Shown: positions 20,077 to 62,702, numbered from the stretch's first letter. The stretch: 64,000 nucleotides of DNA from an uncultured Armatimonadetes bacterium (GCA_937875395.1 CALNCU010000227.1:1297-65296), one strand, 5' to 3'. The notes: generated by a model from the sequence alone, not told the origin. Numbers and translations are program-made.

Positions 20077-20128
20077 ACCGCATATATATTAGTACTCTGT
20101 AAACCTGGATTTGCAAGTTCAAACAAGG

Positions 20129-20169: not shown

Positions 20170-20196
20170 GCCCCGGGGGATTTTTACCGTCCTGGG

Positions 20197-20238
20197 CTTC
20201 GGCAGCGGTGTGCCAAGGCACTCTTCGGCCGAAATATC
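20197..20238. repeat. REP-like element, copy B (subtype 1, diverged 3' arm)
   Basis: cttcggcagcggtgtgccaaggcactcttcggccgaaatatc. First 11 nt identical to copy A; inner stem GTGCC/GGCAC. Confidence 0.55.
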
Positions 20239-32766: not shown

Positions 32767-32784
32767 AGTGCTGTTTGAAAGTGG

Positions 32785-33294: not shown

Positions 33295-33339
33295 GGCGCA
33301 TTCCAACAAATCTTTCCCCCGGATTTTATTGGGAAGGTA

Positions 33340-37946: not shown

Positions 37947-38617
37947 TGTCCGCAGGCATTAGAGACATAAGCGGCTGGATATACGGCGGGATGTGGTCTT
38001 ACTGCCCGGAATACCCCGGGGCAGACATACAGGAGCTTCCACAGCCCGCCTTCCTGCCGCCTGATTATCCGGTCTACCTGCAAAAGTTTATCATAGGCGG
38101 GCAGACCGGAACCTATATAGAGACCAGGGCGCATGTAGACCCAAAGGCAGAACCCGTGACGGCTCTGCCGCTATCACAGTTTTTGCGCCCGGCAGTGGTA
38201 ATAAATGTTGGAGAGAAGGGGCCGGGCCGGGTCATCAGCGTGGCTGACCTTGAGCAGGCGAAGCCGGATATACATCCGGGCGATGCAGTCCTTCTCTCCA
38301 CGGGTTGGGATAAAAATTGGAATGAACCGTACTTTATAGAGGGCAGCCCGTACATAGAACATGAGGCCGCCCTCTGGCTCATAAAAAGAGAGATAGGGCT
38401 GCTTGCAAGCGATTTCCCGCGTTTTGATAACCCCTCCAGCATGCAGTTTCCGTGGGATGCGTTCTGGGAGCATGTAAATCTGCTTCTGGCGCCGGTTACA
38501 AACCTTGACGGGCTCTCCGGCAGGTGCGGAATGCTGGCAGCCTTTCCGCTTAAAATCCGCGGAGCATGCTCCACCCCGTGCCGTGCCGCCCTGCTTCTAA
38601 GCAAGGAGGATTTATAG
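37946..38617 (+). CDS. putative cyclase-family metal-dependent hydrolase (kynurenine formamidase-like fold)
   Basis: Its ATG shares the A of the DegT TGA stop. 223 aa with an HxD-like metal site. Family call moderate. Confidence 0.65.
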   Translation: MSAGIRDISGWIYGGMWSYCPEYPGADIQELPQPAFLPPDYPVYLQKFIIGGQTGTYIETRAHVDPKAEPVTALPLSQFLRPAVVINVGEKGPGRVISVADLEQAKPDIHPGDAVLLSTGWDKNWNEPYFIEGSPYIEHEAALWLIKREIGLLASDFPRFDNPSSMQFPWDAFWEHVNLLLAPVTNLDGLSGRCGMLAAFPLKIRGACSTPCRAALLLSKEDL

Positions 38618-38619
38618 TA

Positions 38620-40044
38620 TTGATTTCTTTAACAAAGAAAGATATTGTGCGGGGGCTTGTATCCCTTGGGCTGGAATCCGGCGACAAGGTGCTTATGCAC
38701 TCATCATTTGTGGCGCTGGGAAAGGTTGAAGGCGGCCCCAACACGGTAATAGACGCTCTTCTTGAGGTGCTGGGGGAGGACGGGCTTCTGGTTATGCCCA
38801 CATTTTCTGCCGGTTCGCCGTTTAACAGAAAGAACGCTCCCACCGGGCTGGGCGTCATTCCAGATGCTTTTTGGCGGCTGCCGGGCGTAGTGCGCAGCCT
38901 TCATCCTTCGCATTCCGTAGCTGCCATGGGGCCGGGGGCGGAAGATTTAATAAGGGATCATGAGAAGGCTCCCACGGCTTACGGAGAGGGCACTCCGTAC
39001 TGCAAACTTGCAATGGGGGGCGGCAAAGTGCTCCTTCTGGGCGTAGACCAGGATAGAAATACCACCCTGCACGCCGCAGAGGCCGCTGCCGGCGCTCCGT
39101 ACCTTAAAAACATAGAAGGCGCCTACATAGATGATAACGGGGATGAGGTTAAAATCCCCATCGCCGCCATGGCAGGGCCTCACCGGGATTTCATAGGATT
39201 AGATAAGCTCTTCCGTGAGAAGGGCATTATGCGCATAGGTCGTATAGGCAGGGCCGCATGCCGCCTTATGGATGGAGAGGCCATGCTCCTTGCAGCCATA
39301 GAGGCTCTTCAAAAAGACCCGGCGGCGGTGCTCTGCAACAATCCCGCCTGCTGGGATTGCGTGCGCCAGCGCGGGCAGATAAAGGCGGCCCGTCTGCTGG
39401 ACGAGTGCTTCACCCTTGCCGCCGTAGCCGGAGATATATCAGAAGATTGGGAAGATGTACACCGGGCGATTCTGGGTGAGGGAATCTCCGCCCTGGAGCT
39501 TACCGCAGAAGAGTATGAGCGCTGGAGTTCTGACTTGACTGATGCCGGCATAAGTATTTCCGCCATCCGCGGAGGCCTTAAGGGTAATGCCGCCGCAAAG
39601 CTTGCGGAGAGCCTGGGCGTGCCGTTTATTGTCCCTGCATCCTGCGAAGAGGATATGGCCGCCGCCGCAAAGCTCCCCGGACGGGTGATAGTAGAGAATA
39701 CAGGGGCATGCTCCGCCGTCTACAAAGAGGCTTACAACCGTGACGGCATGCCGGAGTTTGCCTTCAATCCCGCGCAATTTGCGGCTGTAGGAGAGAAGCC
39801 GTTTTTGCGGGTCTTTTACAGAGGAACGCTTAGAAAGCATACCGTTCATTTCTATCTAGACGATGGGCTGTTTAACGGAACCCCAACCCTTCCGGGCCAG
39901 GGGAACGGAGAAGTAAAAGAGATAATCTCCATGCTGCGCTGCCGCGGATACAATGGAGCCATCACACTCCGCGCGCGCAGTGGCGGCACAGCGGGGTTCA
40001 GGGAAGCGGCATTGGCTTTCTGGTACCTGTTGGATAACATGTAA
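38620..40044 (+). CDS. fusion protein: AAC(3)-family aminoglycoside/aminocyclitol N-acetyltransferase domain + xylose-isomerase-like TIM-barrel (sugar-phosphate isomerase/epimerase) domain
   Basis: N-terminal VLMHSSFVALGKVEGGPNTVIDALLEVLGEDGLLVMPTFS is a strong match to the AAC(3)/YokD family. C-terminal ...VIVENTG...HFYLDDG...GNGEV...LRCRGYNGAITL matches the xylose-isomerase-like barrel. TTG start at 38620 with AAGGAGGA RBS, 2 nt after the cyclase stop. Confidence 0.65.
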   Translation: MISLTKKDIVRGLVSLGLESGDKVLMHSSFVALGKVEGGPNTVIDALLEVLGEDGLLVMPTFSAGSPFNRKNAPTGLGVIPDAFWRLPGVVRSLHPSHSVAAMGPGAEDLIRDHEKAPTAYGEGTPYCKLAMGGGKVLLLGVDQDRNTTLHAAEAAAGAPYLKNIEGAYIDDNGDEVKIPIAAMAGPHRDFIGLDKLFREKGIMRIGRIGRAACRLMDGEAMLLAAIEALQKDPAAVLCNNPACWDCVRQRGQIKAARLLDECFTLAAVAGDISEDWEDVHRAILGEGISALELTAEEYERWSSDLTDAGISISAIRGGLKGNAAAKLAESLGVPFIVPASCEEDMAAAAKLPGRVIVENTGACSAVYKEAYNRDGMPEFAFNPAQFAAVGEKPFLRVFYRGTLRKHTVHFYLDDGLFNGTPTLPGQGNGEVKEIISMLRCRGYNGAITLRARSGGTAGFREAALAFWYLLDNM

Positions 40045-40061
40045 ATATTAAGGAGAAGAAT

Positions 40062-40850
40062 ATGAGCAAAGCAAGAATTATGTACAATATGACGGTTGAA
40101 GAGGTACGGGAAGGCTTAAAAGAGATGAAAACCGTATTTCTGCCCATTGGCGTAGTAGAGCAGCACGGCTACCACATGCCTTTAAGTGTAGACATACATA
40201 ACGCCTACGAGATCTCCAAGATGGCATCAGAGCGGTGCGGCTGCTTTGTGGCCCCTCCAGTGCACTACAGCTTCTCCGGCGGAAGCCTCCCCGGTACCAT
40301 AAACATCCCTCCGCAGCTCTTTTCTATGGTTGTTATGGAGATATGCCACAGCCTTGTTGTGCAGGGGTTCAAAAATATTGCAATAATCCTTGGGCACGGA
40401 GGCACAGAGAACGTGCGCGCATCCTTTGACGCAGCAGAGAACTTTCAGCGGCTTAACCCGGATGTCTCCGGCGTCACCATCTCCGTGGTGCCGTTCTGGG
40501 AATTCTCCCCAACATACATGAAATCCTTTGAAGAGGGAGATTTCCACGCCGGCAAGTACGAAACATCCCTTATGCTCTACTGGAAGCCGGAACTTGTTAA
40601 AATGGAGAAGGCGCGCCTTGATTCGCCAGAAATAGTTAAAATGATGCGCACAGACCAGGATGCCTTCCTTGTAAAGACAAAGGCGGTAGATCACAAGTAC
40701 GTAATACCAAAGATGGTTCAGCACCCGGCAATAGAGGTGGGTGTCATGGGTAATTTTGAAGGAGCAAGCGCAGAGCTTGGCAAAAAAATTGCAGAAGAAT
40801 GCGCAGACAGCCTTGCCAATATGGTTTGGCAGTTGGAGGGGAATAAGTAA
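40062..40850 (+). CDS. creatininase-family amidohydrolase
   Basis: VEQHGYHMPLSVD...ILGHGGTEN...HAGKYETS metal-binding pattern of the creatinine amidohydrolase / ArfB / MftE family. AAGGAG RBS. Confidence 0.75.
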   Translation: MSKARIMYNMTVEEVREGLKEMKTVFLPIGVVEQHGYHMPLSVDIHNAYEISKMASERCGCFVAPPVHYSFSGGSLPGTINIPPQLFSMVVMEICHSLVVQGFKNIAIILGHGGTENVRASFDAAENFQRLNPDVSGVTISVVPFWEFSPTYMKSFEEGDFHAGKYETSLMLYWKPELVKMEKARLDSPEIVKMMRTDQDAFLVKTKAVDHKYVIPKMVQHPAIEVGVMGNFEGASAELGKKIAEECADSLANMVWQLEGNK

Positions 40851-40851
40851 A

Positions 40852-41898
40852 ATGGTTAAATGGGGAATTATAGGCTGCGGAGGCATTGCCCGCCGCAGGA
40901 TGATACCGGCGCTGCCGGAGTGTAAAAACAGCCAGGTTGTTGCAGTTATGGATGTAGACAGGGCTGCCGCAGATGAAGTTGCCGCGCAGATAGGCGCCCG
41001 CGCCTATTACACAGAGGCGGAACTGCTGCGCAACCCGGATGTTCAGGCGGTATACATAGCAACCCCCGTCTTTCTGCATCACGACCAGGTAATTGCAGCG
41101 GCAAAAGCGGGCAAGCACGTACTGGCAGAGAAGCCCATTGCGCTTGCAGTCTCTGAGGCGGAAGAGATGATTGCGGCCTGCAAAGAGGCCGGAGTCTACT
41201 TTACGGAAGGCTACATGATGAAGTTCCACAGCCTTAATGAAGCCGCGCGCAGCATGGTGGCAAAGGGAGAATTGGGCAACATAGTCTTTGCCCGGGCGCA
41301 GCTCTCCTGCTGGTACCCGGATATAAAGGGCGCATGGAGGCAGGACCCAAAGCTTGGCGGCGGCGGATCTCTTATGGATATGGCCACCCACTGCTATGAT
41401 CTTCTTCAATATATAATAGGCTCCAAGATAAAAGAGGTCTTTGCATACACGGATACCCTTACGTTTAAGTACCCGGTTGAAGACAGCTCCACCACCATGC
41501 TCAAGTTTGAGAACGGCGCGCATGCGGTTGTGGATGCCTTCTTCAACGTGCCGGATGCAGCAGGGCAGGCTCGGCTTGAGGTCTACGGGAACAAGGGGAG
41601 CATACAATCGGAAGGCACCATAGGGCAGATGCCCGGCGGACGGATGTATGCATATATCTCAAGCGATTCCAAAGACTACGATCCGCAGCAAAACAAGGAG
41701 AGCCTGGATGTTGTTAAAAGAGAGGTAATGCGCAAACCCGTAAATATGTACGCGCAGGAGATGGATTACCTCTCCGGTTGCATAGATAAGGGGAAGGCCC
41801 CCGCATTCTCCACGGCGGAGGAGGGGCTGTTCATTCTGAAGGTGGCAAAGGCCGCCTATGAGAGCAGCAGAACTGGAGCCGGCACAAAGGTAGAATAA
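40852..41898 (+). CDS. Gfo/Idh/MocA-family NAD(P)-dependent oxidoreductase (inositol/sugar dehydrogenase-like)
   Basis: MVKWGIIGCGGIARRR Rossmann start plus C-terminal Gfo/Idh/MocA domain. ATG is 1 nt after the creatininase-like stop. The ORF-track N-extension was rejected. Confidence 0.85.
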   Translation: MVKWGIIGCGGIARRRMIPALPECKNSQVVAVMDVDRAAADEVAAQIGARAYYTEAELLRNPDVQAVYIATPVFLHHDQVIAAAKAGKHVLAEKPIALAVSEAEEMIAACKEAGVYFTEGYMMKFHSLNEAARSMVAKGELGNIVFARAQLSCWYPDIKGAWRQDPKLGGGGSLMDMATHCYDLLQYIIGSKIKEVFAYTDTLTFKYPVEDSSTTMLKFENGAHAVVDAFFNVPDAAGQARLEVYGNKGSIQSEGTIGQMPGGRMYAYISSDSKDYDPQQNKESLDVVKREVMRKPVNMYAQEMDYLSGCIDKGKAPAFSTAEEGLFILKVAKAAYESSRTGAGTKVE

Positions 41899-49193: not shown

Positions 49194-50087
49194 TTATGAA
49201 GCGCGAAGGCTCGTCCGCACGGAATCAAAGTACTCAAAGCTTACAAGCAGCCGTGTGCAGAGGAGCGGTAAGCCGTGCAGAGGCTTGTCCCCGGCCTTCT
49301 TTACTACCTTTGTATAGAACGGTTTTCCAATGCGCAGTATGTCGTTCCATACAAAGCGGGCAAAGAATATGCCGGTTGACATGCGGGTTCTAAGGAATGG
49401 GCGCTTTCTAAGGTATATGACGGCACTTCTGCCGCTTGATTGCGCCTGCCTGCACAGCCGGGGCAGGTCCGTGCCCTTCCACCGGGTCTTATAGTGGTAG
49501 ACTATGGCTTTTGGGATGAACTTTTTAACAAGCCCCAGGTCTTTAAGCCTGTGTCCCAGTTCCAGGTCCTCCCAGCCGTATTCCGTAAAGTCTTCATCAA
49601 AGAGCCCCGCTTCAAGCAGGAACCTGCGCCGCACGGAGACGTTGCTGGTCCAGAAGAAGGATGTAGAGATATCTGCTATCTTGAACTTGGGGATAAGTTC
49701 CTTATCAAGATTGTCTATGTGGTTCACCCAGCCGTTTACCACGCTCCGCTGATCTGCCTGGTGTGCGGCCCAATGTTCTTTTAGCAGGTTTGCATCTGCA
49801 AAGGTATCATCGTCTATGAATAGGACTACTTCGCCCTCTGCGTTTCTTATCCCAAGGTTGCGGGCTTTGGAAAGTCCGGCGTTCTTCTCTTGCCGCAGGC
49901 ACTTTACCTGGCACTCATGCGCCAGTTCTTTTACCATATCGCTTGTGCCGTCCGTGCTTCCGTCATCTACAAGAACAAGTTCGTAGTCCTCAGGCGGAAA
50001 ATCAACCTTAAAAAGGGCTTCCAGGCACCGTTTAAGCAGGGCCTTCCGGTTGTAGCTGCAGATTTGAATGCTTATTTTTATTGACAT
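49194..50087 (-). CDS. family 2 glycosyltransferase
   Basis: ISIQICSYNRKALL...VDDGSTDGT...FIDDDT. Start ATG at 50087 (GGAG RBS), 17 nt after the msbA stop. The ORF-track N-extension would overlap msbA by 100 nt and was rejected. Confidence 0.8.
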   Translation of the reverse strand: MSIKISIQICSYNRKALLKRCLEALFKVDFPPEDYELVLVDDGSTDGTSDMVKELAHECQVKCLRQEKNAGLSKARNLGIRNAEGEVVLFIDDDTFADANLLKEHWAAHQADQRSVVNGWVNHIDNLDKELIPKFKIADISTSFFWTSNVSVRRRFLLEAGLFDEDFTEYGWEDLELGHRLKDLGLVKKFIPKAIVYHYKTRWKGTDLPRLCRQAQSSGRSAVIYLRKRPFLRTRMSTGIFFARFVWNDILRIGKPFYTKVVKKAGDKPLHGLPLLCTRLLVSFEYFDSVRTSLRAS

Positions 50088-50103
50088 GCTAATTCTCCGT
50101 TTA

Positions 50104-51945
50104 CTATTCGGCAAGAATAGGTTCTTTGTATTCTCTGTCATGGAACTGCATTTCATGGAGACGGCTGTAGAGCCCGCCCATTGCAAGCAGTTCTTTGTGG
50201 TTGCCATCCTCTACTATAGATCCACCGTCAAGCACAAGTATCCGGGTTGCATACTGGATTGTGCTTAATCTGTGGGCTATCACAAAAGTGGTTCTGCCCT
50301 GCATCAGCCTTTCAAGCGCCTGCTGAACCAGGTGTTCGCTCTCTGTATCCAGCGCGCTTGTGGCCTCATCAAGAACAAGAATTCTGGGATTTTTAAGCAG
50401 CGCCCTTGCAATTGCTATACGCTGCCGCTGCCCGCCGGAGAGACGTGTTCCGCGTTCCCCAACTACTGTATCAAGGCCGTCCGGCATGCTCTTTATAAAT
50501 TCAAGCGCGTTAGCCGCCCGGGCAGCCTCTATAACCTCTGCATCTGTTGCCCCAAGCTTGCCGGAGCGTATGTTATCTGCTATGGTGCCGCTGAAGAGGA
50601 GGGTCTCTTGCGGCACTATGCCAACTTGCTCTCTAAGCGATAATAACGTTACGCTGCAAAGGTCTTGTCCGTCTATAAGGATGCGCCCTGCCGTGGGGTT
50701 GTAGAACCGGGGAAGCAGGTTTACCAGCGTTGTCTTTCCGGCTCCGCTTGGCCCCACAAGAGCGATTACATCTCCCGGGCTTGCCTCAAAATTTATATTG
50801 GAAAGAACCGTCTTTTCTTCGTCGTCATAGTTGAATGACAGATTCTCAAAGCGGACATGTCCTTTAACGGGGGGCAGAGGCCGGGCATCCGGCACATCTT
50901 TAATGGTGGGCACGGTGTCCAGAAGTTCAAAGATGCGTTCCCCGGCGCCGTTGACTTTCTCTCTCAGCTGGTTCATTCTTGCAAGCCGGGTGAACTTGTT
51001 GCTGGCCTGTTGCGCCTGGAAAAGGAAGAACATGAATGCCGTTGGAAGCATGGCATTGCGAAGTACGGCTACTCCTCCTATAACCACGCCAAAGACCATT
51101 CCCAGAGTGGTTATAAACTCTATCCCCGGAGAGATTGTCTCTGCCACAAGAATCTGCCGCATGGCCTGTTTATAGTACATGCGATTGAGCTTGGCTACGC
51201 GCTTCTCTTCATAATCTTCCAGCGTGAACGATTGGATAACTTTAATCCCGGAGAGGAGCTCTGTAAGATGGCCGTTTAAGTCTCCCAGTTTATCCTGGAT
51301 GGCTATAACCAGTTTTTTTATAATGCGGCCCATCCCTGCAATTATAACGGCAACAAGCGGCGCCATTATAAGCGCTGCAAGGGTAAGCTTCCATGCTATC
51401 GCAAACATGGTTATCAGCGCTATGGTTATGGTGAGCGGGGCCTGTATAGTCTCTGCAAGGGGAGGGCCCAGCGAATCTTGCAGCACCGCCACATCCCATG
51501 TCATGCGTGTAAGAAGGTTTCCGCTTCTCTGCTTCTCAAACTGTGCGGGCGATAGTTTCAGCACATGGGAAAAGAGCGACTGTCGCAGATCCAGCGCTGT
51601 GCGGTATGAAAACTTTTGCATAAGATAAGTCTGCAGAGCTACGCTTGCGCATTTTATGAGGGTTATAGCAACTATTATTATGGAGATTCGTATAAGCAGC
51701 ATCATCTGGTCTGTGGTGCCTATAAGCTGCGTCAGATAGACTCCCACATCATAGTTGCCCACGCGCAGGCTGAGCCCGCGGCTTGCAAAGGATTCCGCCC
51801 CCAGGACAAGAAAGAGCAGGCTTGTATAAAGCACCGGGATGATGGCTGTTTCCAGCACCGTGGTGAGGGTCATAAATCCCAGGCCCAGGCCAAAAAATTT
51901 TCTGTGCGGGTGCGTATATTTTAATAGGCGCTGAAAAACGCTCAT
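50104..51945 (-). CDS. msbA: lipid A / lipid export ABC transporter (fused permease-ATPase, MsbA-like)
   Basis: 6-TM exporter domain plus NBD with GPSGAGKTT, LSGGQRQRIAIARAL, VLDEATSALD. 613 aa. Located within the lipid A gene cluster. Confidence 0.85.
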   Translation of the reverse strand: MSVFQRLLKYTHPHRKFFGLGLGFMTLTTVLETAIIPVLYTSLLFLVLGAESFASRGLSLRVGNYDVGVYLTQLIGTTDQMMLLIRISIIIVAITLIKCASVALQTYLMQKFSYRTALDLRQSLFSHVLKLSPAQFEKQRSGNLLTRMTWDVAVLQDSLGPPLAETIQAPLTITIALITMFAIAWKLTLAALIMAPLVAVIIAGMGRIIKKLVIAIQDKLGDLNGHLTELLSGIKVIQSFTLEDYEEKRVAKLNRMYYKQAMRQILVAETISPGIEFITTLGMVFGVVIGGVAVLRNAMLPTAFMFFLFQAQQASNKFTRLARMNQLREKVNGAGERIFELLDTVPTIKDVPDARPLPPVKGHVRFENLSFNYDDEEKTVLSNINFEASPGDVIALVGPSGAGKTTLVNLLPRFYNPTAGRILIDGQDLCSVTLLSLREQVGIVPQETLLFSGTIADNIRSGKLGATDAEVIEAARAANALEFIKSMPDGLDTVVGERGTRLSGGQRQRIAIARALLKNPRILVLDEATSALDTESEHLVQQALERLMQGRTTFVIAHRLSTIQYATRILVLDGGSIVEDGNHKELLAMGGLYSRLHEMQFHDREYKEPILAE

Positions 51946-52022: not shown

Positions 52023-53141
52023 TCAGCAGGGGATGTTGAACTCTTTTTGCAGGAACTCTGCCATGCGGGCGGATGCTCCCGGCCGGCCCATCCTCTCTAT
52101 GCCTATTCTGCCTCGTCTTTCACGTTCATCAGGGTTTTTAAGGAGCATAGATACCTCTGCCGCTATATCAGCAGGGGAATCTTTTACATAACGTACTGCG
52201 CCGCCAAGCATTCTTTCCTGATCTTTCATCCGTTTTACCGTTGTCTGCGGCCCTGTTCCGGCAAAGGATACCACCGGTTTTCCGCATCCGGCGGCCTGCT
52301 CGTTGGCAGTTCCGGCAAGGCCTATAAGAACGTCGGAGGATGCAACAATATCTTCAAAGCCGTCTTTTACTAATCTTACGGCATTGCGGCCCTTTTTTAG
52401 GACGGCGGATTCCAGCACCCATCCGTTGACTTTTACATATTCTGCCATACGTTCCGGCTCAAGCGAAGGAGCCAGTGCGCACACATAACAGGCACTCTCC
52501 GGAATCCTCTCTAAAGCTGCAAGTATGCGTGCAAAGTTTGCGTATGCCTCATCCCGGCTTCCGGGGAGTATGCCCACCATGGGGCTGTCTCCCAGCTTAA
52601 GGCCGCGTGGCGCAAGCTCATCCATAATGGGATTTCCCAAAAAGAGCGCATCAACGCCGTGCAATTTAAGGGTCTCCGCCGTATGGGCGTCACGAGTAAG
52701 CACCCGGCGCGCAAACTTCTTAAAGAGCCATTCTTCAAGCTTAAAATGCGGGTGGTTAAAATCTGACTTGGGCAGGGAGAGGTGGATTATATTTTTTTTA
52801 AAGGCAAGATACGCCAGAAACAGTAGAAACAGATCTCCCACAACAACCACGCAGTCTATGCAGTCCCTATGGGCTCTTAACGTTTTGTAGTACCGGATGT
52901 GCCTGAATGTATAGGGGATATCTTTAATAAAACCGGCAGCGCTCATGGTGGGGAACCCGCCGGACGGCGGAATTTGCCCCTCCGTAAGTACCGGTATTCC
53001 GTACTTAATATAGTCTCCGCCCACGGTAATCAGCGGCGCGCCGGAGATAGTAATGTCCGGGCACCTACCCATAAGGGCTTTGGCTATGGCGGCAGCCGAT
53101 CTATCTTCTCCATAACCGTTGCTTAGAAAACAGATGTGCAA
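52023..53141 (-). CDS. GT19-like glycosyltransferase, LpxB-related paralog
   Basis: GILPGSRDEAY and overall GT-B layout resemble LpxB, but the N-terminal GE-SGD motif is degenerate. TTG start with GGGAG RBS. Confidence 0.55.
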   Translation of the reverse strand: MHICFLSNGYGEDRSAAAIAKALMGRCPDITISGAPLITVGGDYIKYGIPVLTEGQIPPSGGFPTMSAAGFIKDIPYTFRHIRYYKTLRAHRDCIDCVVVVGDLFLLFLAYLAFKKNIIHLSLPKSDFNHPHFKLEEWLFKKFARRVLTRDAHTAETLKLHGVDALFLGNPIMDELAPRGLKLGDSPMVGILPGSRDEAYANFARILAALERIPESACYVCALAPSLEPERMAEYVKVNGWVLESAVLKKGRNAVRLVKDGFEDIVASSDVLIGLAGTANEQAAGCGKPVVSFAGTGPQTTVKRMKDQERMLGGAVRYVKDSPADIAAEVSMLLKNPDERERRGRIGIERMGRPGASARMAEFLQKEFNIPC

Positions 53142-53227
53142 CTTGATGCTCCCGTTTTGCCCCGCAGTTCTAACTGTGGGAATACACTCACTACTAGTGG
53201 CATGTAAACTTGAATTTGTCCCGGTAC

Positions 53228-53266
53228 CTTCGGCAGTGGCGCCTTCGGCTCTGCGACCGAAGTATC
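53228..53266. repeat. REP-like element, copy C (subtype 2)
   Basis: cttcggcagtggcgccttcggctctgcgaccgaagtatc, between the two GT19 paralogs. 2 mismatches to reverse-complemented copy F. Confidence 0.6.
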
Positions 53267-53333
53267 ACCCTCCGTAATTAATTTATCAAGCCACTATTGT
53301 GTTAATAAAAGATTATTGCCACAAATTTAAATT

Positions 53334-54527
53334 TTAATCGGCAAGGAGCGCTTCTGCAATAATGCCTGCTGCTCCTCTTTGCCTGGTAATCTCTGCCAGT
53401 TCGTGCGCAATATGCTCCCGCCTGCCGGAATTTGCCAGAAGATCTGCCGCTGCCGTTGCTACTCCGGCGGGGCGGAGGATTCCGCGCATCTCTGGCACTA
53501 TCTCTCGTCCGGCAATCATGTTGGGCAGAGAGACACACTTTACCTTCCTGTTCATGGCAAGGAACAGATTCCGTTTGATTAATCCCAGCGGGTAGACCTT
53601 TGGGAAGATGAACTCGGCCAGCCCGTCAAGGGGGATATATTCTGCCTTGTTGAGCGGCACCACAACAAGCATGGGCACATGCATTCCGGCTATCTGAAGG
53701 TTGTTTGTGCCGGGAATGGTTACAGCAAGGCTTGAGACGGATATGACTTCATGCTGGTTCTGGTACACTATTCTTACACGGCAGCCGGATTTGGCCAGGA
53801 TATCGCAAAAGCCATCGCCGGTCTCTATCTTAAAACCTTCCTTTTGCAAGAATTTAAGTATATGCGCACGGTCTGCAAAGGGTGAGAGCGCCACCACGGG
53901 ATATATCTCCGGGCGCATCTCCCAAAGCTTATTGGCCGAATGCAGCAGAAACGGGAGCATATATTCTATGTATGCAGGGCGGCTTCCCGGCAGAAATGTT
54001 ACCACGGTGGATTCCCGGCCGGAGCCTGTGAGCCGCCGGAGAATCTCCTCCCTGCCTGAGTTTATTTGAATACTGTCCAGACCCAGATGCCCCGCAACTG
54101 TAAGCTGATGGGGCAGGGCGCCTCTTTTTATGGATTCCTCCCGGGTGCGTTCGTCCGGGAGGAAGAACATGCTAAACTCCTTCACCCGGCGAACCTTGGA
54201 TACATACCCAAAGAGGGGGGCGCGCATCTTTTTTGCAATAAGCGCCGCATAAAACGTATCGCCGCCTAGAAAGAGCACCCTGTGCGGCTCTGCACATGAG
54301 GTTTTTTTATGCAGGTAAAGGTTTGAAAGCAGGCTTTTAACAGTTGTTACCCCGTCTATGCCGGGCTGCTTCTGCGCAAACTCTGCCTCCATGCCGCTTG
54401 CATACTGGCATGGGGTGATAACAAGGGTTACCCGCACGGATGCGTTGCGGGCTTTTAGCTCCCTTACAACGGGGGATACCCAGCCGGAGAGTTCTCCGGG
54501 CGAATTTGCGGTGATAAATACTTGCAT
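53334..54527 (-). CDS. lpxB: lipid-A-disaccharide synthase (GT19)
   Basis: N-terminal VFITANSPGELSGW (LpxB A-GE-SGD-like), LPGSRPAYIEYMLPF, NMIAGREIVPE. 397 aa. Confidence 0.75.
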   Translation of the reverse strand: MQVFITANSPGELSGWVSPVVRELKARNASVRVTLVITPCQYASGMEAEFAQKQPGIDGVTTVKSLLSNLYLHKKTSCAEPHRVLFLGGDTFYAALIAKKMRAPLFGYVSKVRRVKEFSMFFLPDERTREESIKRGALPHQLTVAGHLGLDSIQINSGREEILRRLTGSGRESTVVTFLPGSRPAYIEYMLPFLLHSANKLWEMRPEIYPVVALSPFADRAHILKFLQKEGFKIETGDGFCDILAKSGCRVRIVYQNQHEVISVSSLAVTIPGTNNLQIAGMHVPMLVVVPLNKAEYIPLDGLAEFIFPKVYPLGLIKRNLFLAMNRKVKCVSLPNMIAGREIVPEMRGILRPAGVATAAADLLANSGRREHIAHELAEITRQRGAAGIIAEALLAD

Positions 54528-54563: not shown

Positions 54564-55472
54564 TTAACGGGTTATGCCAAGCCCCTTCCTTAAACCCTCT
54601 GCGTGTGCATGTATAAGATAGAACTTTTTAAGCATGGGAGGCCAGGCGGGCAGCCTGCCGCCGGATGAGCTTATGTACTCTTCATTAAGGTAACGGCGGA
54701 CCCAGCCCATTCTTTCAAATAGTCTATCATACTTGAGGTACCGGAGTCTAACCATCCTCTTTGCCATAGCGGATGGATGCTTGCAGAAGAACTTTCCGGC
54801 ATACTCCGCCCGCTCTTTTCTAAATGCAGCCTGGCTTTGCAGCGAGTACTTTCCAACTTTGCAGTGGAGGACGTATGCCCGCCTGTTTTTTATGCGTTTC
54901 AGGCCGGATTCCATCAGGCGCGTGCCAAGTTCCACATCCTCCCATGCCCATACAAACTCTTCATCAAAGCCGCCTGCGCTCTCAAGGCTTTTCCTTGGGC
55001 ATGATGCGTTTGCGGTTATAAAATACACTCCTCCAAAATCCAGGAATGCCATGGTTTTAATATCCCAGCGCAAGAACGGAGGGGCCTGTATATCTTCCTT
55101 GCGGGTCAGGTTTATTATTGGGCCGTCCATAATAATGCCGGGGTTGGTTTTGTGGGTTTCAACATGTTCCCGTATATACCAGGGCGGGGCAAAGGCATCG
55201 CTGTCTATAAATATTACAATCTCTCCCGCGGCCTCTGTAATTGCCTTGTTCCGTGCTATGCTCGGCCCCAGGGTTTTGGTGTTTGCAATATAGGCAAGGC
55301 GGCAGGGAGGGTTTAGATTGCGGATCATCTCTGCCGTGCCGTCCGTTGAGCAATCATCCACAATCACTATTTCGTACTTGTCTTTGGGATAGTCCTGTTC
55401 AAAAAGATGCTCAAGGCATTTTTTAAGAAGGGCCTCTCTGTTATATGTGGCGATGACTACAGTTGCATCCAT
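54564..55472 (-). CDS. family 2 glycosyltransferase
   Basis: ATVVIATYNREALL...VDDCSTDGT...FIDSDA. ATG at 55472 with AAAGGAG RBS. The ORF-track N-extension was rejected. Confidence 0.75.
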   Translation of the reverse strand: MDATVVIATYNREALLKKCLEHLFEQDYPKDKYEIVIVDDCSTDGTAEMIRNLNPPCRLAYIANTKTLGPSIARNKAITEAAGEIVIFIDSDAFAPPWYIREHVETHKTNPGIIMDGPIINLTRKEDIQAPPFLRWDIKTMAFLDFGGVYFITANASCPRKSLESAGGFDEEFVWAWEDVELGTRLMESGLKRIKNRRAYVLHCKVGKYSLQSQAAFRKERAEYAGKFFCKHPSAMAKRMVRLRYLKYDRLFERMGWVRRYLNEEYISSSGGRLPAWPPMLKKFYLIHAHAEGLRKGLGITR

Positions 55473-55489
55473 CCGCCGTTGTACTCCTT

Positions 55490-56536
55490 TTAAGTTCTTT
55501 GTTCGGCCAGTTCCCGGGCTGCGCGGGCTACCTGGTTTTCGTCTATGGCAAGAAGGCATTTAAAGTAGCGGCAGTTCCCTTTTATGCAGGTATTGGTGCA
55601 GCCGGAATTTTCAACCCGTATCACCCTGCTTGGCACGCCGTAGGGCTTCCACCGGTTGGGGAAATCCTCTTTCAGGGCAAAGATAGATACCACCGGCACC
55701 CCCACCGCTGCCGCTATGTGCCCAGGCCCGGAATCCGGGCAGATAAGCACATCCATGGCGGAGATTACCCCGGCCAGCTGACGGAGCCCGGTCTTTCCGG
55801 CAATATTTAAAACTCCTCCGCCAATCTCTTCTTCTACCTTTGCGGCAAGTTCAACCTCTTTGGGGCCGCCCATAATCACCAGCCTGTACCCCGGCCAGCC
55901 GCAGATAATCTTTCCAGCGGCGGCAAATTTATCTGTAGGCCAAATCTGCGGATTAATATTCATGCCCTTGCCCAGGTGCATCCCTACTACTTTCTCACCG
56001 GGCTTAATTCCAAGCTCTTTTAAGAATTCTTTCCCGCCTGCCTTTTCTTCTGCCGTAAGCCAGATTCCGGGCAGGACTTCCGGGATGGAGAGCCCCAGGA
56101 TGCGGGCATAATCCAACTGGCAGTCTACCCAGTGGCTGGTTGTATCTCCATGCAGAGAGCGCACCCGCACGGCATGCGTAAACAGAAAACTGTATGTAAT
56201 TCGCTCTGCCTGCCCAACCCTTACGGGGATGCCGGCAAGCGCGCAAATCCATGCCTGCGCAGAAGTGCTCCAGGGCATAACCGCCAGATCAAACCGCCCG
56301 CGCCTTACAAGACTAAGCTTGCGTGCAAAGGAGGCGTCTGCGCCTGGTTCCAAAAAGCCGTCTGCAAAGGGGTTGTTTTCCATAACCGGGCGCATGGCAG
56401 GGTTGATCCAGCAGGTTACAGAGCAATTGGGATAACACTTCTTAAAGGTTTCCATAAGCGTGGATGTAAGCAGAAGATCTCCTACGCCGCCCCTGGTAAG
56501 CACAAAGAGAATTCTCTGTATCTGTGGTGATTTCAC
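55490..56536 (-). CDS. family 9 glycosyltransferase (heptosyltransferase-like)
   Basis: RILFVLTRGGVGDLLLTS N-terminus and CPDSGPGHIAAAVGVPVVSIF C-terminal GT9 motif. GTG start. Confidence 0.75.
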   Translation of the reverse strand: MKSPQIQRILFVLTRGGVGDLLLTSTLMETFKKCYPNCSVTCWINPAMRPVMENNPFADGFLEPGADASFARKLSLVRRGRFDLAVMPWSTSAQAWICALAGIPVRVGQAERITYSFLFTHAVRVRSLHGDTTSHWVDCQLDYARILGLSIPEVLPGIWLTAEEKAGGKEFLKELGIKPGEKVVGMHLGKGMNINPQIWPTDKFAAAGKIICGWPGYRLVIMGGPKEVELAAKVEEEIGGGVLNIAGKTGLRQLAGVISAMDVLICPDSGPGHIAAAVGVPVVSIFALKEDFPNRWKPYGVPSRVIRVENSGCTNTCIKGNCRYFKCLLAIDENQVARAARELAEQRT

Positions 56537-59781: not shown

Positions 59782-61452
59782 ATGATTATGAAAAAAGATA
59801 CTGTTAAAATGGCAGCGGCCGCCTGCAGCACAATGCGGCAATCCTGTGCAAGGTTTTGCCGGTCTAACGGTGATCTGCTGCTGATTCTGTTCTTTGCAGC
59901 GGCCGTGTTGCTTGCCAACATAGGGGTTGCCCGCGAGTTCTACTCCGACGATGAATACCTGTACGCCAAGATTGCCGCAGAGATGTTTCACAGGGGCGAT
60001 CTGTGGGTGCCCACGTGGCTGGGCAAGGCCGCCTTTTACAAGCCTCCCTTTACTTACTGGCTTATGATGCTGGGCTACTCCGTATTTGGAGTAAGCCTTA
60101 CTGCGGCCAGAATCTCCGTTGCCGCAACGGGGGTGTGCACGGCATGGCTTCTCTTTCTTCTTGGGCGACGGTTGTATGGCCGGGAAGGGGCACGGCTTGC
60201 CGGATTGCTCTTTATTACATCATTCGGTTATCTGTTTTACGGCAGGGTGGGGATGATGGATATGCCGTTTACCCTCTTTATTGCCGCCGCAATCTACTCT
60301 TTTTACCGGGCCTTTGAGGATGAATCCAAACAGCATGCAGCAGCGTTCTTTGTGCTTGCGGGGGCATCCACGCTTGTAAAGGGGCCGGTCTCTGCTGTGA
60401 TAATACTGATGTTTGGTGTTCTTATGCTGGTAATCTACGGACGTCCTGGACGCATCTTTAATGCCTGGGGCGCTGCGGGTATTGTTGCCGGTATTGCCCT
60501 GGTTTTGCTCTGGCCCGCCGCCATGTACTTCCGGGGTGAGTGGGGCGAGTGGTACAGGTTCTTTGTATTGCGGGAGAACCTGGGCAAGTTCACAGATCAA
60601 GCGTATTCCATCTTTAAGATGCTGCCGTATATTTTGCAGTACTTCTTTCCCTGGTCTCTGCTGTTTATTGCAGGTGCAGCGGTGCTCTTCCGGAGGGGAG
60701 CCTTAAGCGGCCGAAAATTTGTTTATCCGCTGTTTTGGATGCTTTGCGCAACGGCGGTCTTTATTATTCCGGCCGTAAAGCTTCCCTGGTATATGCTGCC
60801 GTCCCTGCCTGCGGCAGCCTTGTTTACGGCGGGGGCGTGGGTGGAGCTGAAAGGGAGCCGGCCTGCAAGGATTGGGGCGGCCGCTACCGTTATACCGGCG
60901 CTAATTTTACTGGCGGCATTACTTGTTGCGCTAAGGGTCTCCGGGGATGCCGGACTTTGCATTGTGCTTGCGGCGGCATTTGCGGTAAACTTGCTGCTCC
61001 TGCGCTTTTTGCTTGTAGGGGATGTTGCAAAAGGCGCGCTGGCTTACGGAGCCATGGTTATCCTTATAATCCTTGCCGGAGGATGTTTTACGTTTGACAG
61101 GCTCCCCGGAGAAGCAATTGCCATGATGGGTTCCCAAAGCGTGCCGGTAGGCGTTGTAAAAAAGCAGGTTTATCTATACAGCTACTACCTGGACAGACCG
61201 GTCAGGCAGATTTATGAGACTTCTCAGGCGGACGATATTTTATCACGCGGCGGCCGGGTGATTGTGGATGCGCACAACCTTGCAGAGTTTACCCGTGAAG
61301 GCAGCATCCAAAAGATTCATACGCTGCACAAGTGGCGTGAATGGAAGGAGACCATAATGCCCCGGGAAGCAGTTTGTGCCGTTGTTACAGGTAATATACT
61401 GCCTCTTCAGGAGCAGGTCTATCTTATAAAATCTGCAGAGTTGCGGCGTTAA
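59782..61452 (+). CDS. GT83-family (ArnT/PMT_2-like) glycosyltransferase, second copy
   Basis: YSDDEYLYAKIAAEMF...W...YKPPFTYW motif and ~13 TM helices. ATG at 59782, 12 nt after GGAGG. The 59770 codon is GTG. Confidence 0.75.
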   Translation: MIMKKDTVKMAAAACSTMRQSCARFCRSNGDLLLILFFAAAVLLANIGVAREFYSDDEYLYAKIAAEMFHRGDLWVPTWLGKAAFYKPPFTYWLMMLGYSVFGVSLTAARISVAATGVCTAWLLFLLGRRLYGREGARLAGLLFITSFGYLFYGRVGMMDMPFTLFIAAAIYSFYRAFEDESKQHAAAFFVLAGASTLVKGPVSAVIILMFGVLMLVIYGRPGRIFNAWGAAGIVAGIALVLLWPAAMYFRGEWGEWYRFFVLRENLGKFTDQAYSIFKMLPYILQYFFPWSLLFIAGAAVLFRRGALSGRKFVYPLFWMLCATAVFIIPAVKLPWYMLPSLPAAALFTAGAWVELKGSRPARIGAAATVIPALILLAALLVALRVSGDAGLCIVLAAAFAVNLLLLRFLLVGDVAKGALAYGAMVILIILAGGCFTFDRLPGEAIAMMGSQSVPVGVVKKQVYLYSYYLDRPVRQIYETSQADDILSRGGRVIVDAHNLAEFTREGSIQKIHTLHKWREWKETIMPREAVCAVVTGNILPLQEQVYLIKSAELRR

Positions 61453-62399
61453 GAGAGGCTATTGCGCACAAGGGCAAAGAGGAGCGGAAGCATTATCTCA
61501 TGGTGCCCGGTGAGAGAGTATGCGCTGCCGCTGCTCATGGTGGGGCGGTGCAGCACGTTTACCATAGGCCGGTAGTGCTGATTCATATCCATATTCACAG
61601 TGGTAAAATCTTTAACAGGCTCCTTTGAGAGGTTCCGGGCTGCATTTAGCGCTTTTACAAAGACCTCCGGGAGCACCACTGCCGAACCTATATTAAGGTA
61701 GACGCCTCCATCCCCCATATCGCCAATAACGGAGATAATAAGGCGGAAATCTGTAAAGCTGGCCTGCCCAAGCGCAGAACCGCTGGCTGTGGGGTGCATG
61801 TGTATGGTGTCGCCGCCTACTGCTATGTGCACGGTAACCGGCACTTCAAGCCGGGCCCCGGCGGCCAGAATGCTGTTTTTTTGGCAGGGGGCGTTCAGCT
61901 CTATAAGCTTTTTGCCAAGGGAGGCCCCCATGCCCATCCCGCACCCGGCGCCCTCTGTGATGGCTCCGTTCATGGCTTCTCCGGTCTCCCTTACCATGCC
62001 GAAGCGTCCGTTTTCAAGGCTTGCTGCCACGTCTTCAGAGGTTCGCCCTATTAGCGCCATCTCAAAATCGTGGATGCTGGCGCCGCCGTTCATGGCGACG
62101 GCGCTTATAATCCCCTGCTCCATAAAGTCTATAAGAAGGGGGGCGAGCCCGCATTTTACAACATGTCCGCCAATCCCCACTATTACAGGTTTCTTTTTTT
62201 TGTATGCGGTAACTATTGCCTGCACAACCTTGCGGAGTTCATTTGCCTTTAATATATCTGGCAGGCTGTCTAAAAATGCTCCAAGCCCCGCTCCAGGCTG
62301 GCAGACTTCTGCAAGTTTTGAGGAATCTACCTTGGTTGGGCGCTCTTCTATAGGGAAGGTATTTATGTTTTTTAGATCAGCAGGTGTATAGCGTTTCAT
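61449..62399 (-). CDS. hypothetical protein, possibly deoxyhypusine-synthase-like fold
   Basis: PVIVGIGGHVVKCGLAPLLIDFMEQGIISAVAMNGGASIHDFEMAL loosely resembles the DHS-like NAD-binding pattern. ATG at 62399 (MKRYTPADL); the ORF-track N-extension runs into the REP cluster. Weak call. Confidence 0.4.
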   Translation of the reverse strand: MKRYTPADLKNINTFPIEERPTKVDSSKLAEVCQPGAGLGAFLDSLPDILKANELRKVVQAIVTAYKKKKPVIVGIGGHVVKCGLAPLLIDFMEQGIISAVAMNGGASIHDFEMALIGRTSEDVAASLENGRFGMVRETGEAMNGAITEGAGCGMGMGASLGKKLIELNAPCQKNSILAAGARLEVPVTVHIAVGGDTIHMHPTASGSALGQASFTDFRLIISVIGDMGDGGVYLNIGSAVVLPEVFVKALNAARNLSKEPVKDFTTVNMDMNQHYRPMVNVLHRPTMSSGSAYSLTGHHEIMLPLLFALVRNSLS

Positions 62400-62445
62400 A
62401 ATTATAGTCCTGGCAGCACCCCGCCAAATTAATTTGCGGGTGGCG

Positions 62446-62478
62446 CTTCGGCTGCAAGTGTGAAGTACTGCTCCGAAG
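62446..62478. repeat. REP-like element, degenerate copy D
   Basis: cttcggctgcaagtgtgaagtactgctccgaag. Shares the CTTCGG...CCGAAG arms and a gaagta core. Confidence 0.4.
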
Positions 62479-62509
62479 CCTGGTGGCATGCAAATTTAAA
62501 TATGTCCTG

Positions 62510-62551
62510 GATACTTCAGTCGCAGAGTGCCTTGGCACGCCGCTGCCGAAG
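62510..62551. repeat. REP-like element, copy E (subtype 1, inverted orientation)
   Basis: Reverse complement is cttcggcagcggcgtgccaaggcactctgcgactgaagtatc, about 90% identical to copies A and B. Confidence 0.6.
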
Positions 62552-62573
62552 CAAGGGGCATCACCCCCAAGGC

Positions 62574-62611
62574 GATACTTCGGTCGCAGAGCCGGAGGCG
62601 CCGCTGCCGAA
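62574..62611. repeat. REP-like element, copy F (subtype 2, inverted orientation)
   Basis: Reverse complement is cttcggcagcggcgcctccggctctgcgaccgaagtatc, near-identical to copy C. Confidence 0.6.
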
Positions 62612-62702
62612 GCCCTGTTTGAACTTGCAAATCTACTAGTGATGGAGTAGTTATTTGATTACACAGCAATCTTATGACTATTGCAGGTTCTTTGTCAATA
62701 AT

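Follow-up and report, generated by a model that had tools for sequence, protein, structure and literature searches.

Two LpxB-like glycosyltransferase families encoded together in a predicted lipopolysaccharide gene cluster of an Armatimonadota bacterium

Of the envelope pathways, lipid A assembly is seen as well understood and highly conserved, with a single LpxB step. A 64-kb stretch of DNA from an uncultured Armatimonadota bacterium (hereafter the window) carries two neighbouring minus-strand genes whose products both resemble LpxB, which raises the question of whether the pair is a housekeeping lpxB with a divergent duplicate, as had been proposed, or two enzymes of another kind. The upstream gene, P1 (53334..54527), has an ATG start and encodes an LpxB-like GT-B protein of 397 aa, from an unnamed family, with the motifs SPGELSGW, LPGSR and NMIAGREIVPE. 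The downstream gene, P2 (52023..53141), starts at TTG and encodes a GT-B protein of 372 aa with the motifs FLSNGYGEDRSAAA and ILPGSRDEAY. Both reading frames, the start codon of P2 and all of these motifs are as given in the original prediction.

Family membership of P1 and P2

P1 had been taken for canonical lpxB. On the lpxB equivalog model TIGR00215, however, its 48 bits are below the cutoff of 190.25 and it is not a member, while the lpxB of locus L070, used as a positive control, reaches 306 bits. P1 is also a non-member of TIGR03492 (39 bits), and it scores 526 bits on an HMM built from its own family versus 91 bits on a canonical LpxB HMM. The Pfam LpxB profile (PF02684) matches P1 above its gathering score (50.4 versus 22.6 bits), over residues 146-369 only. 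The P1 family is labelled "hypothetical protein" at NCBI, and some of its members are annotated by JGI as lipid-A-disaccharide synthase; a Pfam LpxB match by itself mislabels P1-type proteins in this way.

P2 belongs over its full length to TIGR03492, an NCBIfam hypothetical equivalog, from which it shows no differences (276 bits, cutoff 219.2; residues 5-367 aligned to profile positions 2-395 of 396). One of the possibilities raised for it, a lipid-A-disaccharide-synthase-related protein of unknown function, is therefore its curated assignment, and a protein identical to P2 (MFA6665696.1) is already named lipid-A-disaccharide synthase-related at NCBI. P2 has no match at E<=1 on TIGR00215 or PF02684; some of its homologues have a precomputed PF02684 match. 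Literature searches on TIGR03492 and the lipid-A-disaccharide synthase-related protein, and on LpxB paralogs/lpxB2 and Armatimonadetes LPS, found no paper on function in the library searched.

The N-terminus of P2 is not degenerate, as had been thought: N8, G11, E12 and D13 are invariant or near-invariant across the family. The TTG start is supported by homologues, whose first residue falls at this same place (MHICFLSNCYGED...); an L start is likewise recorded by one gene caller. The sequence GGGAG lies 8 nt upstream of the TTG. The next ATG corresponds to M24, and starting there would cut off the invariant N8/G11/E12 motif. Both genes are under strong purifying selection, and about 8 independent assemblies carry them intact. 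P2 appears split in one older MAG. The record there is flagged 'partial' and contains two pieces, each 100% identical to the window P2, with a gap of 20 residues between them, which points to a scaffold gap rather than a frameshift. Pseudogene status had been named in advance as an outcome to look for; neither gene is a pseudogene, and for P2 the idea is rejected on its full-length conservation and intact copies.

The description of the pair as tandem GT19 paralogs stands in one part. Profile-profile comparison with hhalign places both proteins in the LpxB (GT19-like) GT-B superfamily, with homology to LpxB spanning their full length (canonical LpxB versus P1, E=1e-40; versus P2, E=8e-22; P1 versus P2, E=1.8e-22). 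A recent tandem duplication, on the other hand, is rejected. P1 and P2 share about 18% identity (24% over 118 aa by BLASTP), and their identity to canonical LpxB is 22% and 18%, respectively. In a neighbor-joining tree of 79 sequences, canonical LpxB, P1 and P2 form separate deep clades (support of 99, 82 and 100, respectively, in 100 bootstraps), with neither P1 nor P2 inside the canonical clade. With an identity of about 18%, P1 and P2 are thus ancient superfamily relatives and not recent paralogs.

The GT-B fold of E. coli LpxB (PDB 5W8X; CAZy GT19; PF02684; TIGR00215) is common to both proteins. Their AF2 models are confident GT-B folds (pLDDT 92.1 for P1 and about 92 for P2), with two predicted Rossmann-like domains and a nucleotide site in the C-domain, and E. 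coli LpxB is found at ranks 2-4 of the Foldseek matches to P1. The C-domain L-P-G-S-R, with its essential Arg, and the G-T motif are LpxB-like in P1 and P2 and kept in all three families: P198-G199-S200-R201/T277 of LpxB corresponds to P180-G181-S182-R183/T274 in P1 and P193-G194-S195-R196/T278 in P2. In the N-domain, both have a conserved Glu within a Gly-rich loop and an Asp near the predicted base. These invariant residues (E12 in both; D90 in P1, D103 in P2) fall 0-4 columns from E. coli E15/S17 and D98; the register of the loop and of the catalytic Asp shifts with the aligner (MAFFT versus hhalign). The full set of invariant positions in P1 is N8, S9, P10, G11, E12, S44, G45, E47, G88, D90, G181, S182, R183, P272, G273, T274, N336 and E346.

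The following features set the proteins apart from LpxB or from each other. First, P1 alone of the two keeps the swap-segment motifs LPN (N316) and AGRE..PE (E326), at its invariant N336 and E346; P2 lacks them, with R/F and G in the two columns, and has motifs of its own (PPSGGF, KSD..PH..E and GxGPQT). Second, P1 carries a family-specific insertion of ~23 aa in the swap region. Third, canonical LpxB has an invariant Glu that binds ribose (E281), which is not kept in the window P1 (Q278) or P2 (Q282). In the P1 family this position is E in 17 sequences, Q in 16 and H in one, and the window P1 belongs to the 'Q-type' subclade that makes up this half of the family. In P2, Q282 is found in 32/32 sequences with E281 one position before it, giving an invariant E-Q at the E. 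coli E281 site. Because of the Q at this site, nucleotide binding in P1 and P2 would differ from that of canonical LpxB and could be weakened. Nevertheless, the retained donor-site motifs and the confident models make it likely that both are catalytically competent.

It is very improbable that P2 is not a transferase at all but a UDP-sugar 2-epimerase or hydrolase-type enzyme on a GT-B scaffold. This reading draws on a phmmer match to an epimerase C-domain, itself weak (E=0.014), and on N-domain positions that are invariantly acidic, His or Lys (D103, K125, H132, E136, D151). However, the same epimerases head the structural matches of P1, which is clearly LpxB-like, so the similarity, confined to structure and no greater in P2 than in P1, is generic to the subfold. 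Pfam Epimerase_2 (PF02350) has no match at E<=1 in P1 or P2, whereas the sequence-profile homology of P2 to LpxB is full-length, its LPGSR and GT motifs agree with LpxB, and its repeated fusions to glycosyltransferases (see below) fit a transferase step.

The gene string and its recurrence in other lineages

The pair lies in a string of minus-strand genes, headed in the window by a GT9 heptosyltransferase-like gene (55490..56536; Pfam Glyco_transf_9, 87 bits) whose matches to heptosyltransferases II/III are below threshold. Directly upstream of P1 is GT2a (54564..55472; Pfam Glycos_transf_2, 110 bits), a soluble family-2 glycosyltransferase; its start is probably at 55472, with the mechanical ORF extending to 55559 and the gene calls in L001 and L002 giving 302 aa. 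Directly downstream of P2 is an ABC exporter of 613 aa (50104..51945; Pfam ABC_membrane and ABC_tran). Its best NCBIfam match, MsbA_lipidA (TIGR02203), is at 507 bits, under the cutoff of 602, and it is described here as MsbA-like, not MsbA. Given this sub-cutoff score, the exported lipid might differ from ordinary lipid A-core. The exporter is followed by GT2b (49194..50087; Pfam Glycos_transf_2, 108 bits), of the same subfamily as GT2a, with a start probably at 50087 (mechanical ORF to 50207; 297 aa in the L002 gene call). The order GT9-GT2-P1-P2-ABC-GT2 is also found in L001 and L007. The window as a whole encodes two GT9s, a GT4, GT2s, a PAP2 phosphatase, two ArnT-like proteins and a GT2 resembling polyprenyl-P glycosyltransferases. 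Going by these predicted products, the surroundings are those usual for LPS core and lipid A modification, and the locus appears to sit in a gene cluster of that kind in this Armatimonadota bacterium.

The 192-nt spacer between P1 and P2 (53142..53333, minus strand) contains one REP-like palindromic repeat, so the REP element that had been noted between the genes is confirmed as a dispersed palindromic repeat. The unit is ~40 nt long (GATACTTCGGTCGCAGAG...C(G)CTGCCGAAGC) and lies at 53227-53266(-); its arms, CTTCGG(TC)GCAG and CTGC-CGAAG, pair together. With further intergenic copies at 62510-62552(+), 62574-62614(+), 20127-20169(-) and 20195-20238(-), there are five copies in three intergenic regions of the window. 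A 36-nt pattern of the repeat, with 3 mismatches allowed, was found twice versus 0 expected from shuffles. Like REP elements, the repeat is short, imperfectly palindromic, dispersed, strictly intergenic, and present singly or in tandem pairs in either orientation; unlike enterobacterial REPs, its sequence is unrelated to theirs and it is known from five copies in a single 64-kb window. The spacer and repeat have no match in Rfam, and the fold z-score of -2.4 is accounted for by the repeat hairpins, so a structured RNA or riboswitch is rejected. No intrinsic terminator was found in the 192 nt, and the promoter-like match there is weak (9/12). In relatives the genes overlap or lie <=40 nt apart (a spacer of 39 nt); the long, repeat-bearing spacer is thus lineage-specific.

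Duplicated enzymes of this type had been considered uncommon. However, a P1 gene is found within 6 kb in 33 of 80 P2 loci from reference genomes; over the same distance there is an MsbA-like gene in 27, a GT2a/b-type gene in 41 and canonical lpxB in 12. P1/P2-type enzymes are found in Armatimonadota, Aerophobetes, Negativicutes, Halanaerobiales, Margulisbacteria, WOR-3 and others, and the P1-P2 pair recurs with an MsbA-like exporter and one GT2 subfamily in the first four of these groups and others. Q-type P1 genes abut or overlap P2 in 12/12 cases. Q-type loci without canonical lpxB within 10 kb include a complete Armatimonadota chromosome. The remaining 47 of the 80 P2 loci have no nearby P1, including all Brevinematales, where P2 occurs on its own outside any LPS context. 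P2 function thus does not depend on the module.

The same associations are seen in gene fusions. Three WOR-3 MAGs have GT2-GT2-P2 fusions, and the window GT2b matches both of their GT2 domains full-length (115-120 bits). Further P2 fusions are GT2-P2, P2-GT2 and Wzy_C-P2, the last being a fusion to an O-antigen-ligase-type domain. In P0413 an orthologue of the window GT2a (52% identity over the full length) is fused to P1, so that the same GT2 subfamily is fused to P1 and to P2 in other lineages. One fusion joins P2 to a UshA-like UDP-sugar hydrolase/nucleotidase, which fits a UDP-linked donor; this phosphoesterase is UshA/5'-nucleotidase-like, ruling out LpxH. Taken from comparative sequence, GT2a-P1-P2-MsbA-like exporter-GT2b appears to be an ancient conserved module, headed here by the GT9 gene.

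The gene neighbourhoods also bear on an unlikely reading close to the original prediction, in which P1 is a highly divergent orthologue and the lineage's only functional LpxB, and P2 alone is accessory. In its favor, besides the Pfam score and the JGI labels, P1 keeps G-E, PGSR, GT, LPN and AGRE..PE, its top structural matches include E. coli LpxB, and neither the window nor the 10 kb around the pair at any Q-type locus contains a canonical lpxB. However, absence within 10 kb weighs little for a multi-Mb genome, and P1 falls well short on the lpxB equivalog model, groups in a clade of its own and has Q at an otherwise invariant Glu. A GT2-P1 fusion, furthermore, is not expected of a housekeeping LpxB. 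A row of canonical lpxB, P1, an msbA-like gene and P2 is found in 12 Bacillota/Halanaerobiales loci, where the true lpxB beside the P1 orthologue scores 180-230 bits against E. coli. The order in L070 is lpxC-fabZ-lpxA-lpxI-lpxB (TIGR00215, 306 bits)-P1-msbA-like-P2 (TIGR03492, 338 bits)-GT2-...-lptB-lptFG. Negativicutes are reported to have a standard lpxA-lpxI-lpxB cluster (PMC5007114, PMC2626281), yet Negativicutes loci L017-L026 carry Q-type P1-P2 pairs. Thus the P1 and P2 families both coexist with true LpxB in other phyla, and P1 is not supported as canonical lpxB.

The Bacillota/Halanaerobiales lineages with P1 and P2 also have lpxK, waaA and lpxL-type genes (PMC5007114, PMC2626281), so P1 and P2 appear as additions to a complete pathway and not as replacements. 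A role in standing in for missing LpxK or WaaA is ruled out in Bacillota, where the full lpxACDIBK/waaA set is present.

A proposed role in lipid A-proximal glycan assembly

The reading preferred here, with a probability of about one half, is that neither P1 nor P2 is the housekeeping LpxB and that both are LpxB offshoots that modify a lipid A-type acceptor. Each would be catalytically active and transfer sugar from a UDP donor with inversion, on the cytoplasmic side of the inner membrane, with lipid A disaccharide, lipid IVA, Kdo-lipid A or the inner core as the probable acceptor. Their LpxB ancestry would pre-adapt them to an acylated glucosamine headgroup. P1 and P2 would act in sequence with the two GT2 enzymes, the four together assembling a glycan close to lipid A; the product would then be flipped by the MsbA-like transporter. 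The working model is that of the LPS core transferases, WaaA (GT30), WaaC/WaaF (GT9) and WaaG (GT4), which are likewise cytoplasmic-face GT-B enzymes, are encoded with msbA and other core transferases as P1 and P2 are with an MsbA-like gene, and act sequentially on a lipid A-anchored acceptor before MsbA; P1 and P2 differ from them in belonging to other GT families. A lipid A/LPS genomic context is also what P1 and P2 have in common with LpxB itself.

E. coli LpxB is a C-terminal-swapped dimer in which the active site is completed in trans (PMC5785501), and P1 and P2 might by analogy form an obligate heterodimer, one partner being catalytic and the other degenerate and substrate-presenting. 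The abutting or overlapping of P2 with Q-type P1, suggesting translational coupling, the restriction of the E-to-Q ribose-site change to that subclade and the P1 insertion in the swap region are in line with this. It is distinctly improbable, however: the essential Arg and the other donor-site residues are kept in both proteins, so that neither looks dead, and P2 lacks the LPN/AGRE motifs of the swap segment. More than half of the P2 loci have no P1 nearby, an ABC gene separates the two in Bacillota, and the correlation between E or Q and adjacency may merely mirror two clades.

It is also quite unlikely that the module serves to make and export a lipid-A-like glycolipid distinct from ordinary LPS, with P1 condensing acyl-glucosamines, P2 and the GT2s extending the product and the MsbA-like exporter flipping it. 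The exporter's score under the MsbA equivalog cutoff would agree with this, as would the second msbA-related gene that Halothermothrix orenii has in its lpxK/kdtA operon (PMC2626281), the travelling of the module as a unit, at times away from lpx genes, and the Wzy_C-type membrane domains fused to or adjoining P2. On the other hand, divergent MsbA orthologues often fall short of equivalog cutoffs, the module has no independent acyltransferase set, the Bacillota genes lie between lpxB and lptB/lptFG, and the neighbours in the window are of LPS core and lipid A modification type.

Significance for envelope biology

Two further LpxB-derived enzyme families are thus wired into LPS gene clusters, one of which (P2) has had a database name only and the other (P1) has been 'hypothetical' throughout. 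In diderm Firmicutes their genes lie directly between lpxB and lptB. A rather unlikely extension, with larger consequences, is that GT2a-P1-P2-ABC-GT2b forms a self-contained pathway that builds and flips either a glycolipid related to lipid A but so far undescribed, or an unconventional headgroup of lipid A, such as a backbone longer than the disaccharide or one carrying sugar in place of phosphate. The module would, under that extension, be widespread in diderm Terrabacteria and candidate phyla. If it were true, the Raetz pathway would not be the whole of lipid A assembly across much of bacterial diversity.

As for the acceptor-modifying role preferred above, the recurrence of P1 and P2 in LPS clusters with GT2s and an MsbA-like exporter suggests that the assembly of outer-membrane lipids includes undescribed steps. 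The two families offer specific genes to follow up by genetics and by mass spectrometry of lipid A, and would mark one or more conserved steps of outer-membrane glycolipid synthesis in lineages that are used to study the evolution of the two-membrane envelope.

Two LpxB-related families in tandem

Both genes are on the minus strand, at the very positions given in the original prediction: P1, encoding an LpxB-like GT-B protein (53334-54527; 397 aa, ATG start), and P2 (52023-53141; 372 aa, TTG start). All motifs quoted for them were found in the translations. The TTG start is credible, because P2 homologues share this first residue (MHICFLSNCYGED...), GGGAG is found 8 nt upstream, and starting at the next ATG would cost P2 an invariant motif. 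NCBI lists identical proteins from an Armatimonadota MAG under MFA6665695.1 for P1, named 'hypothetical protein', and MFA6665696.1 for P2, named 'lipid-A-disaccharide synthase-related protein'.

Over its full length, P2 belongs to the NCBIfam family TIGR03492, 'lipid-A-disaccharide synthase-related protein' (276 bits, cutoff 219), one of the options originally offered for it; a Pfam scan of P2 gave no significant match. P1 had been taken for canonical lpxB. Its match to Pfam LpxB (50 bits, above the permissive threshold) is confined to residues 146-369, it reaches 48 bits on the lpxB equivalog model against a cutoff of 190, and it scores 526 bits on a P1-family HMM versus 91 on a canonical-LpxB HMM. 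The P1 family has no curated model and is mislabelled, depending on the source, as 'hypothetical' or 'lipid A disaccharide synthase'.

By BLASTP, P1 and P2 are barely alignable (24% over 118 aa). At the profile level (hhalign), P1, P2 and LpxB are mutual full-length homologues (canonical LpxB vs P1, E = 1e-40; canonical LpxB vs P2, E = 8e-22; P1 vs P2, E = 1.8e-22). A joint neighbour-joining tree of 13 canonical LpxB (including E. coli, checked against PDB 5W8N/5W8X), 34 P1 and 32 P2 sequences contains three separate clades (bootstrap 99, 82 and 100, respectively), with between-family identity of 18-22%. From the separate clades and low identity, P1 and P2 are ancient relatives within one superfamily and did not arise as tandem paralogs in recent times. 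AF2 models confidently predict a GT-B fold for both P1 (pLDDT 92.1, pTM 0.90) and P2 (pLDDT 91.8, pTM 0.87). Both families are under strong purifying selection.

The 192-nt P1-P2 spacer contains one imperfect palindrome of ~40 nt (53227-53266, minus strand). Described earlier as a REP element, it is indeed a dispersed intergenic palindrome, of which two further intergenic regions of the window each hold a tandem pair (62510-62552 and 62574-62614, plus strand; 20127-20169 and 20195-20238, minus strand), with no matches in shuffled sequence and none to an Rfam family. The unit (~40 nt) reads GATACTTCGGTCGCAGAG - variable mini-hairpin - C(G)CTGCCGAAGC; copies within the window are exclusively intergenic, single or in tandem pairs. 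In relatives, P1 and P2 are 39 nt apart or overlap, which makes the long spacer an insertion specific to this lineage. No tRNA genes occur in the window.

Gene neighbourhoods with and without lpxB

P1 and P2 are part of the string GT9, GT2a (54564..55472, minus), P1, P2, MsbA-like ABC exporter, GT2b (49194..50087, minus), also found in related assemblies and a complete 3.78-Mb Armatimonadota chromosome. Mechanical ORFs of the glycosyltransferases GT2b (49194-50207) and GT2a (54564-55559) run 104 and 70 nt into the genes before them; judging by the conserved N-termini and by how these genes are called in identical contigs (L001/L002), the true starts are at 50087 and 55472. The surrounding cluster holds another GT9, a GT4, further GT2s, a polyprenyl-phosphate glycosyltransferase-like GT2, two ArnT-like proteins and a PAP2 phosphatase. 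None of lpxA, lpxC, lpxD, lpxK and waaA was found among the scanned window ORFs (most ORFs, 9.6-64 kb).

Just upstream of this LPS cluster, 36681-41898 encodes a DegT-type aminotransferase, a cyclase, an aminoglycoside N3-acetyltransferase-like protein, a creatininase-family protein and a Gfo/Idh/MocA oxidoreductase with a sub-threshold match to UDP-GlcNAc 3-dehydrogenase (118 bits), possibly a pathway for amino sugars, whether of the GnnA/GnnB type or another. In two other loci (L003 and L005) the P1-P2 pair likewise has DegT and Gfo/Idh/MocA genes at its flanks. At the cluster edge, 61449-62489 (minus) encodes a 346-aa protein with no Pfam match that is a strong member of the NCBIfam 'GSU2086 family' (405 bits against a cutoff of 250). 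Some 10 kb from the cluster, consecutive genes for an ECF sigma factor, a zf-HC2 anti-sigma factor and a MucB/RseB-like protein (32176-34320) resemble an RpoE-type envelope-stress module.

A scan for P2 relatives, with one genome per species, gave 543 confirmed stretches, from which 80 loci were kept and searched with family HMMs. Within 6 kb of P2 were found P1 (33/80 loci), an MsbA-like gene (27/80), the GT2a/b subfamily (41/80) and canonical lpxB (12/80). In Brevinematales, P2 stands alone. In twelve loci from Halanaerobiales and other diderm Bacillota, true lpxB, scoring 180-230 bits when compared with E. coli LpxB, is followed by a P1-type gene, which reaches 390-475 bits on the P1 HMM but just 15-40 with E. 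coli LpxB; next, in most cases, is an MsbA-like ABC gene, and last a P2-type gene. One operon (L070) reads lpxC, fabZ, lpxA, lpxI, lpxB (306 bits, TIGR00215), P1-type (41 bits), msbA-like, TIGR03492 (338 bits), GT2, epimerase, lptB, lptF/G. Between its lpxA and lpxI lies a 212-aa PEMT-type (phospholipid methyltransferase) gene (L070:4025-4663), a possible lipid A phosphate methyltransferase by analogy with Leptospira LmtA.

Published analyses credit the same lineages with lpxK, waaA and a late acyltransferase as well (PMC5007114, PMC2626281), so that P1 and P2 there supplement a complete Raetz pathway and do not stand in for absent steps. That P1 is the only LpxB of the window's lineage is unlikely; in favour of this reading, loci of its architecture carry no lpxB, and against it speak P1's own scores and clade, and its orthologues beside true lpxB.

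The exporters linked to P1/P2 score best on MsbA models, below the equivalog cutoff of 602 (window 50104-51945, 507 bits; L070:8130-9938, 541 bits), and H. orenii is reported to have another msbA-related gene in its lpxK/kdtA operon (PMC2626281). The exporters may thus represent a flippase paralogous to MsbA instead of MsbA proper. A separate pathway to a lipid-A-like glycolipid, served by a dedicated flippase, is quite unlikely; the exporter's scores speak for it, the lipid A operons of Bacillota against it.

Conserved residues

Key residues of E. coli LpxB, which acts as a C-terminally swapped dimer, are E15, S17, D98 (the predicted base), P198-G199-S200-R201 (R201 essential), T277, E281 (to ribose hydroxyls), F298 and N316 (PMC5785501). 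PGSR and the Thr are kept in both P1 and P2 families, whose nucleotide-diphosphate sites are intact. An invariant Asp (P1 D90, P2 D103) lies within a few columns of D98 and an invariant Glu (E12 in both) within a few columns of the E15 loop, both in an aligner-dependent register. P1 retains the counterparts of N316 and E326, and its swap region carries ~23 inserted residues (PLNKxExIPLDG) peculiar to the family. P2 lacks the N316/E326 segment; among its own motifs, PPSGGF, KSD..PH..E and GxGPQT are invariant. In their N-terminal loops, P1 (N-S-P-G-E) and P2 (N-x-Y/F-G-E-D) are closer to each other than to canonical G-E-x-S-G-D. The P2 N-terminus, previously called degenerate, is therefore a conserved family signature. 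An obligate P1:P2 heterodimer with one degenerate subunit is improbable; the swapped LpxB dimer speaks for it, the intact sites of both families and the solitary P2 of Brevinematales against it.

The E281 column holds E throughout canonical LpxB and Q, after an invariant E, throughout P2; P1 is divided between E and Q (Q278 in the window). Among 28 P1 genes of the reference loci, the 12 of Q type all share the window's arrangement, adjoining or overlapping P2 in loci that lack lpxB, and all 16 E-type genes have the Bacillota architecture, with lpxB immediately upstream in 12. This clean split may simply reflect two clades.

Fusions and proposed function

An exhaustive profile search found ~630 P2-family clusters at E<=1e-30. 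The top matches include GT2-P2, GT2-GT2-P2 and P2-GT2 fusions, four proteins joining a Wzy_C (O-antigen-ligase-type) membrane domain to P2, and one UshA-like UDP-sugar hydrolase/nucleotidase-P2 protein. The last, a single cluster representative (P0317, 650 aa), has its UshA/5'-nucleotidase-like calcineurin phosphoesterase N-terminal to the TIGR03492 domain. In three WOR-3 MAGs, GT2-GT2-P2 is an uninterrupted frame of ~1,060 codons (L028:8018-11203, L037:174-3401, L039:8030-11191), with GT2 domains matching GT2a and GT2b over their full length. A near-identical low-complexity linker follows each GT2 domain, with an MsbA-like gene close by on the other strand.

Among the matches listed, the P1-family profile search gave MAG proteins only, and each NCBI name shown for the 120 listed is 'hypothetical protein'. 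In the one P1 fusion found (P0413), 300 residues of a GT2a orthologue (52% identity) precede a Q-type P1 (54% identity); P2 and ABC genes lie 6 kb further on. P1 and P2 have thus each fused independently to the same GT2 subfamily, strong evidence that P1, P2, GT2a and GT2b act in one pathway. A non-transferase role for P2 is very improbable, given its PGSR motif and GT2 fusions.

P1 and P2 show conserved linkage and fusion with GT2 transferases, and are linked to an MsbA-like exporter, to O-antigen-ligase-type domains and, in Bacillota, to core lipid A and Lpt genes. With a probability of about 0.5, both would be active inverting UDP-sugar-dependent transferases that, together with GT2a and GT2b, act one after another on a lipid A-type acceptor; these steps would take place on the cytoplasmic side of the inner membrane, ahead of flipping. 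Since both descend from LpxB, it is plausible that they recognise an acylated glucosamine headgroup.

As the P2 family already has a name in NCBIfam, finding it here is nothing new; no papers on TIGR03492 were found. As far as the searched literature goes, the co-occurrence of three LpxB-like families in lipid A operons of diderm Firmicutes appears undescribed, as does the GT2-P1-P2-ABC module across many phyla. On comparative evidence, the module would mark a step that is conserved but has no assigned enzyme function, in a pathway generally regarded as complete.
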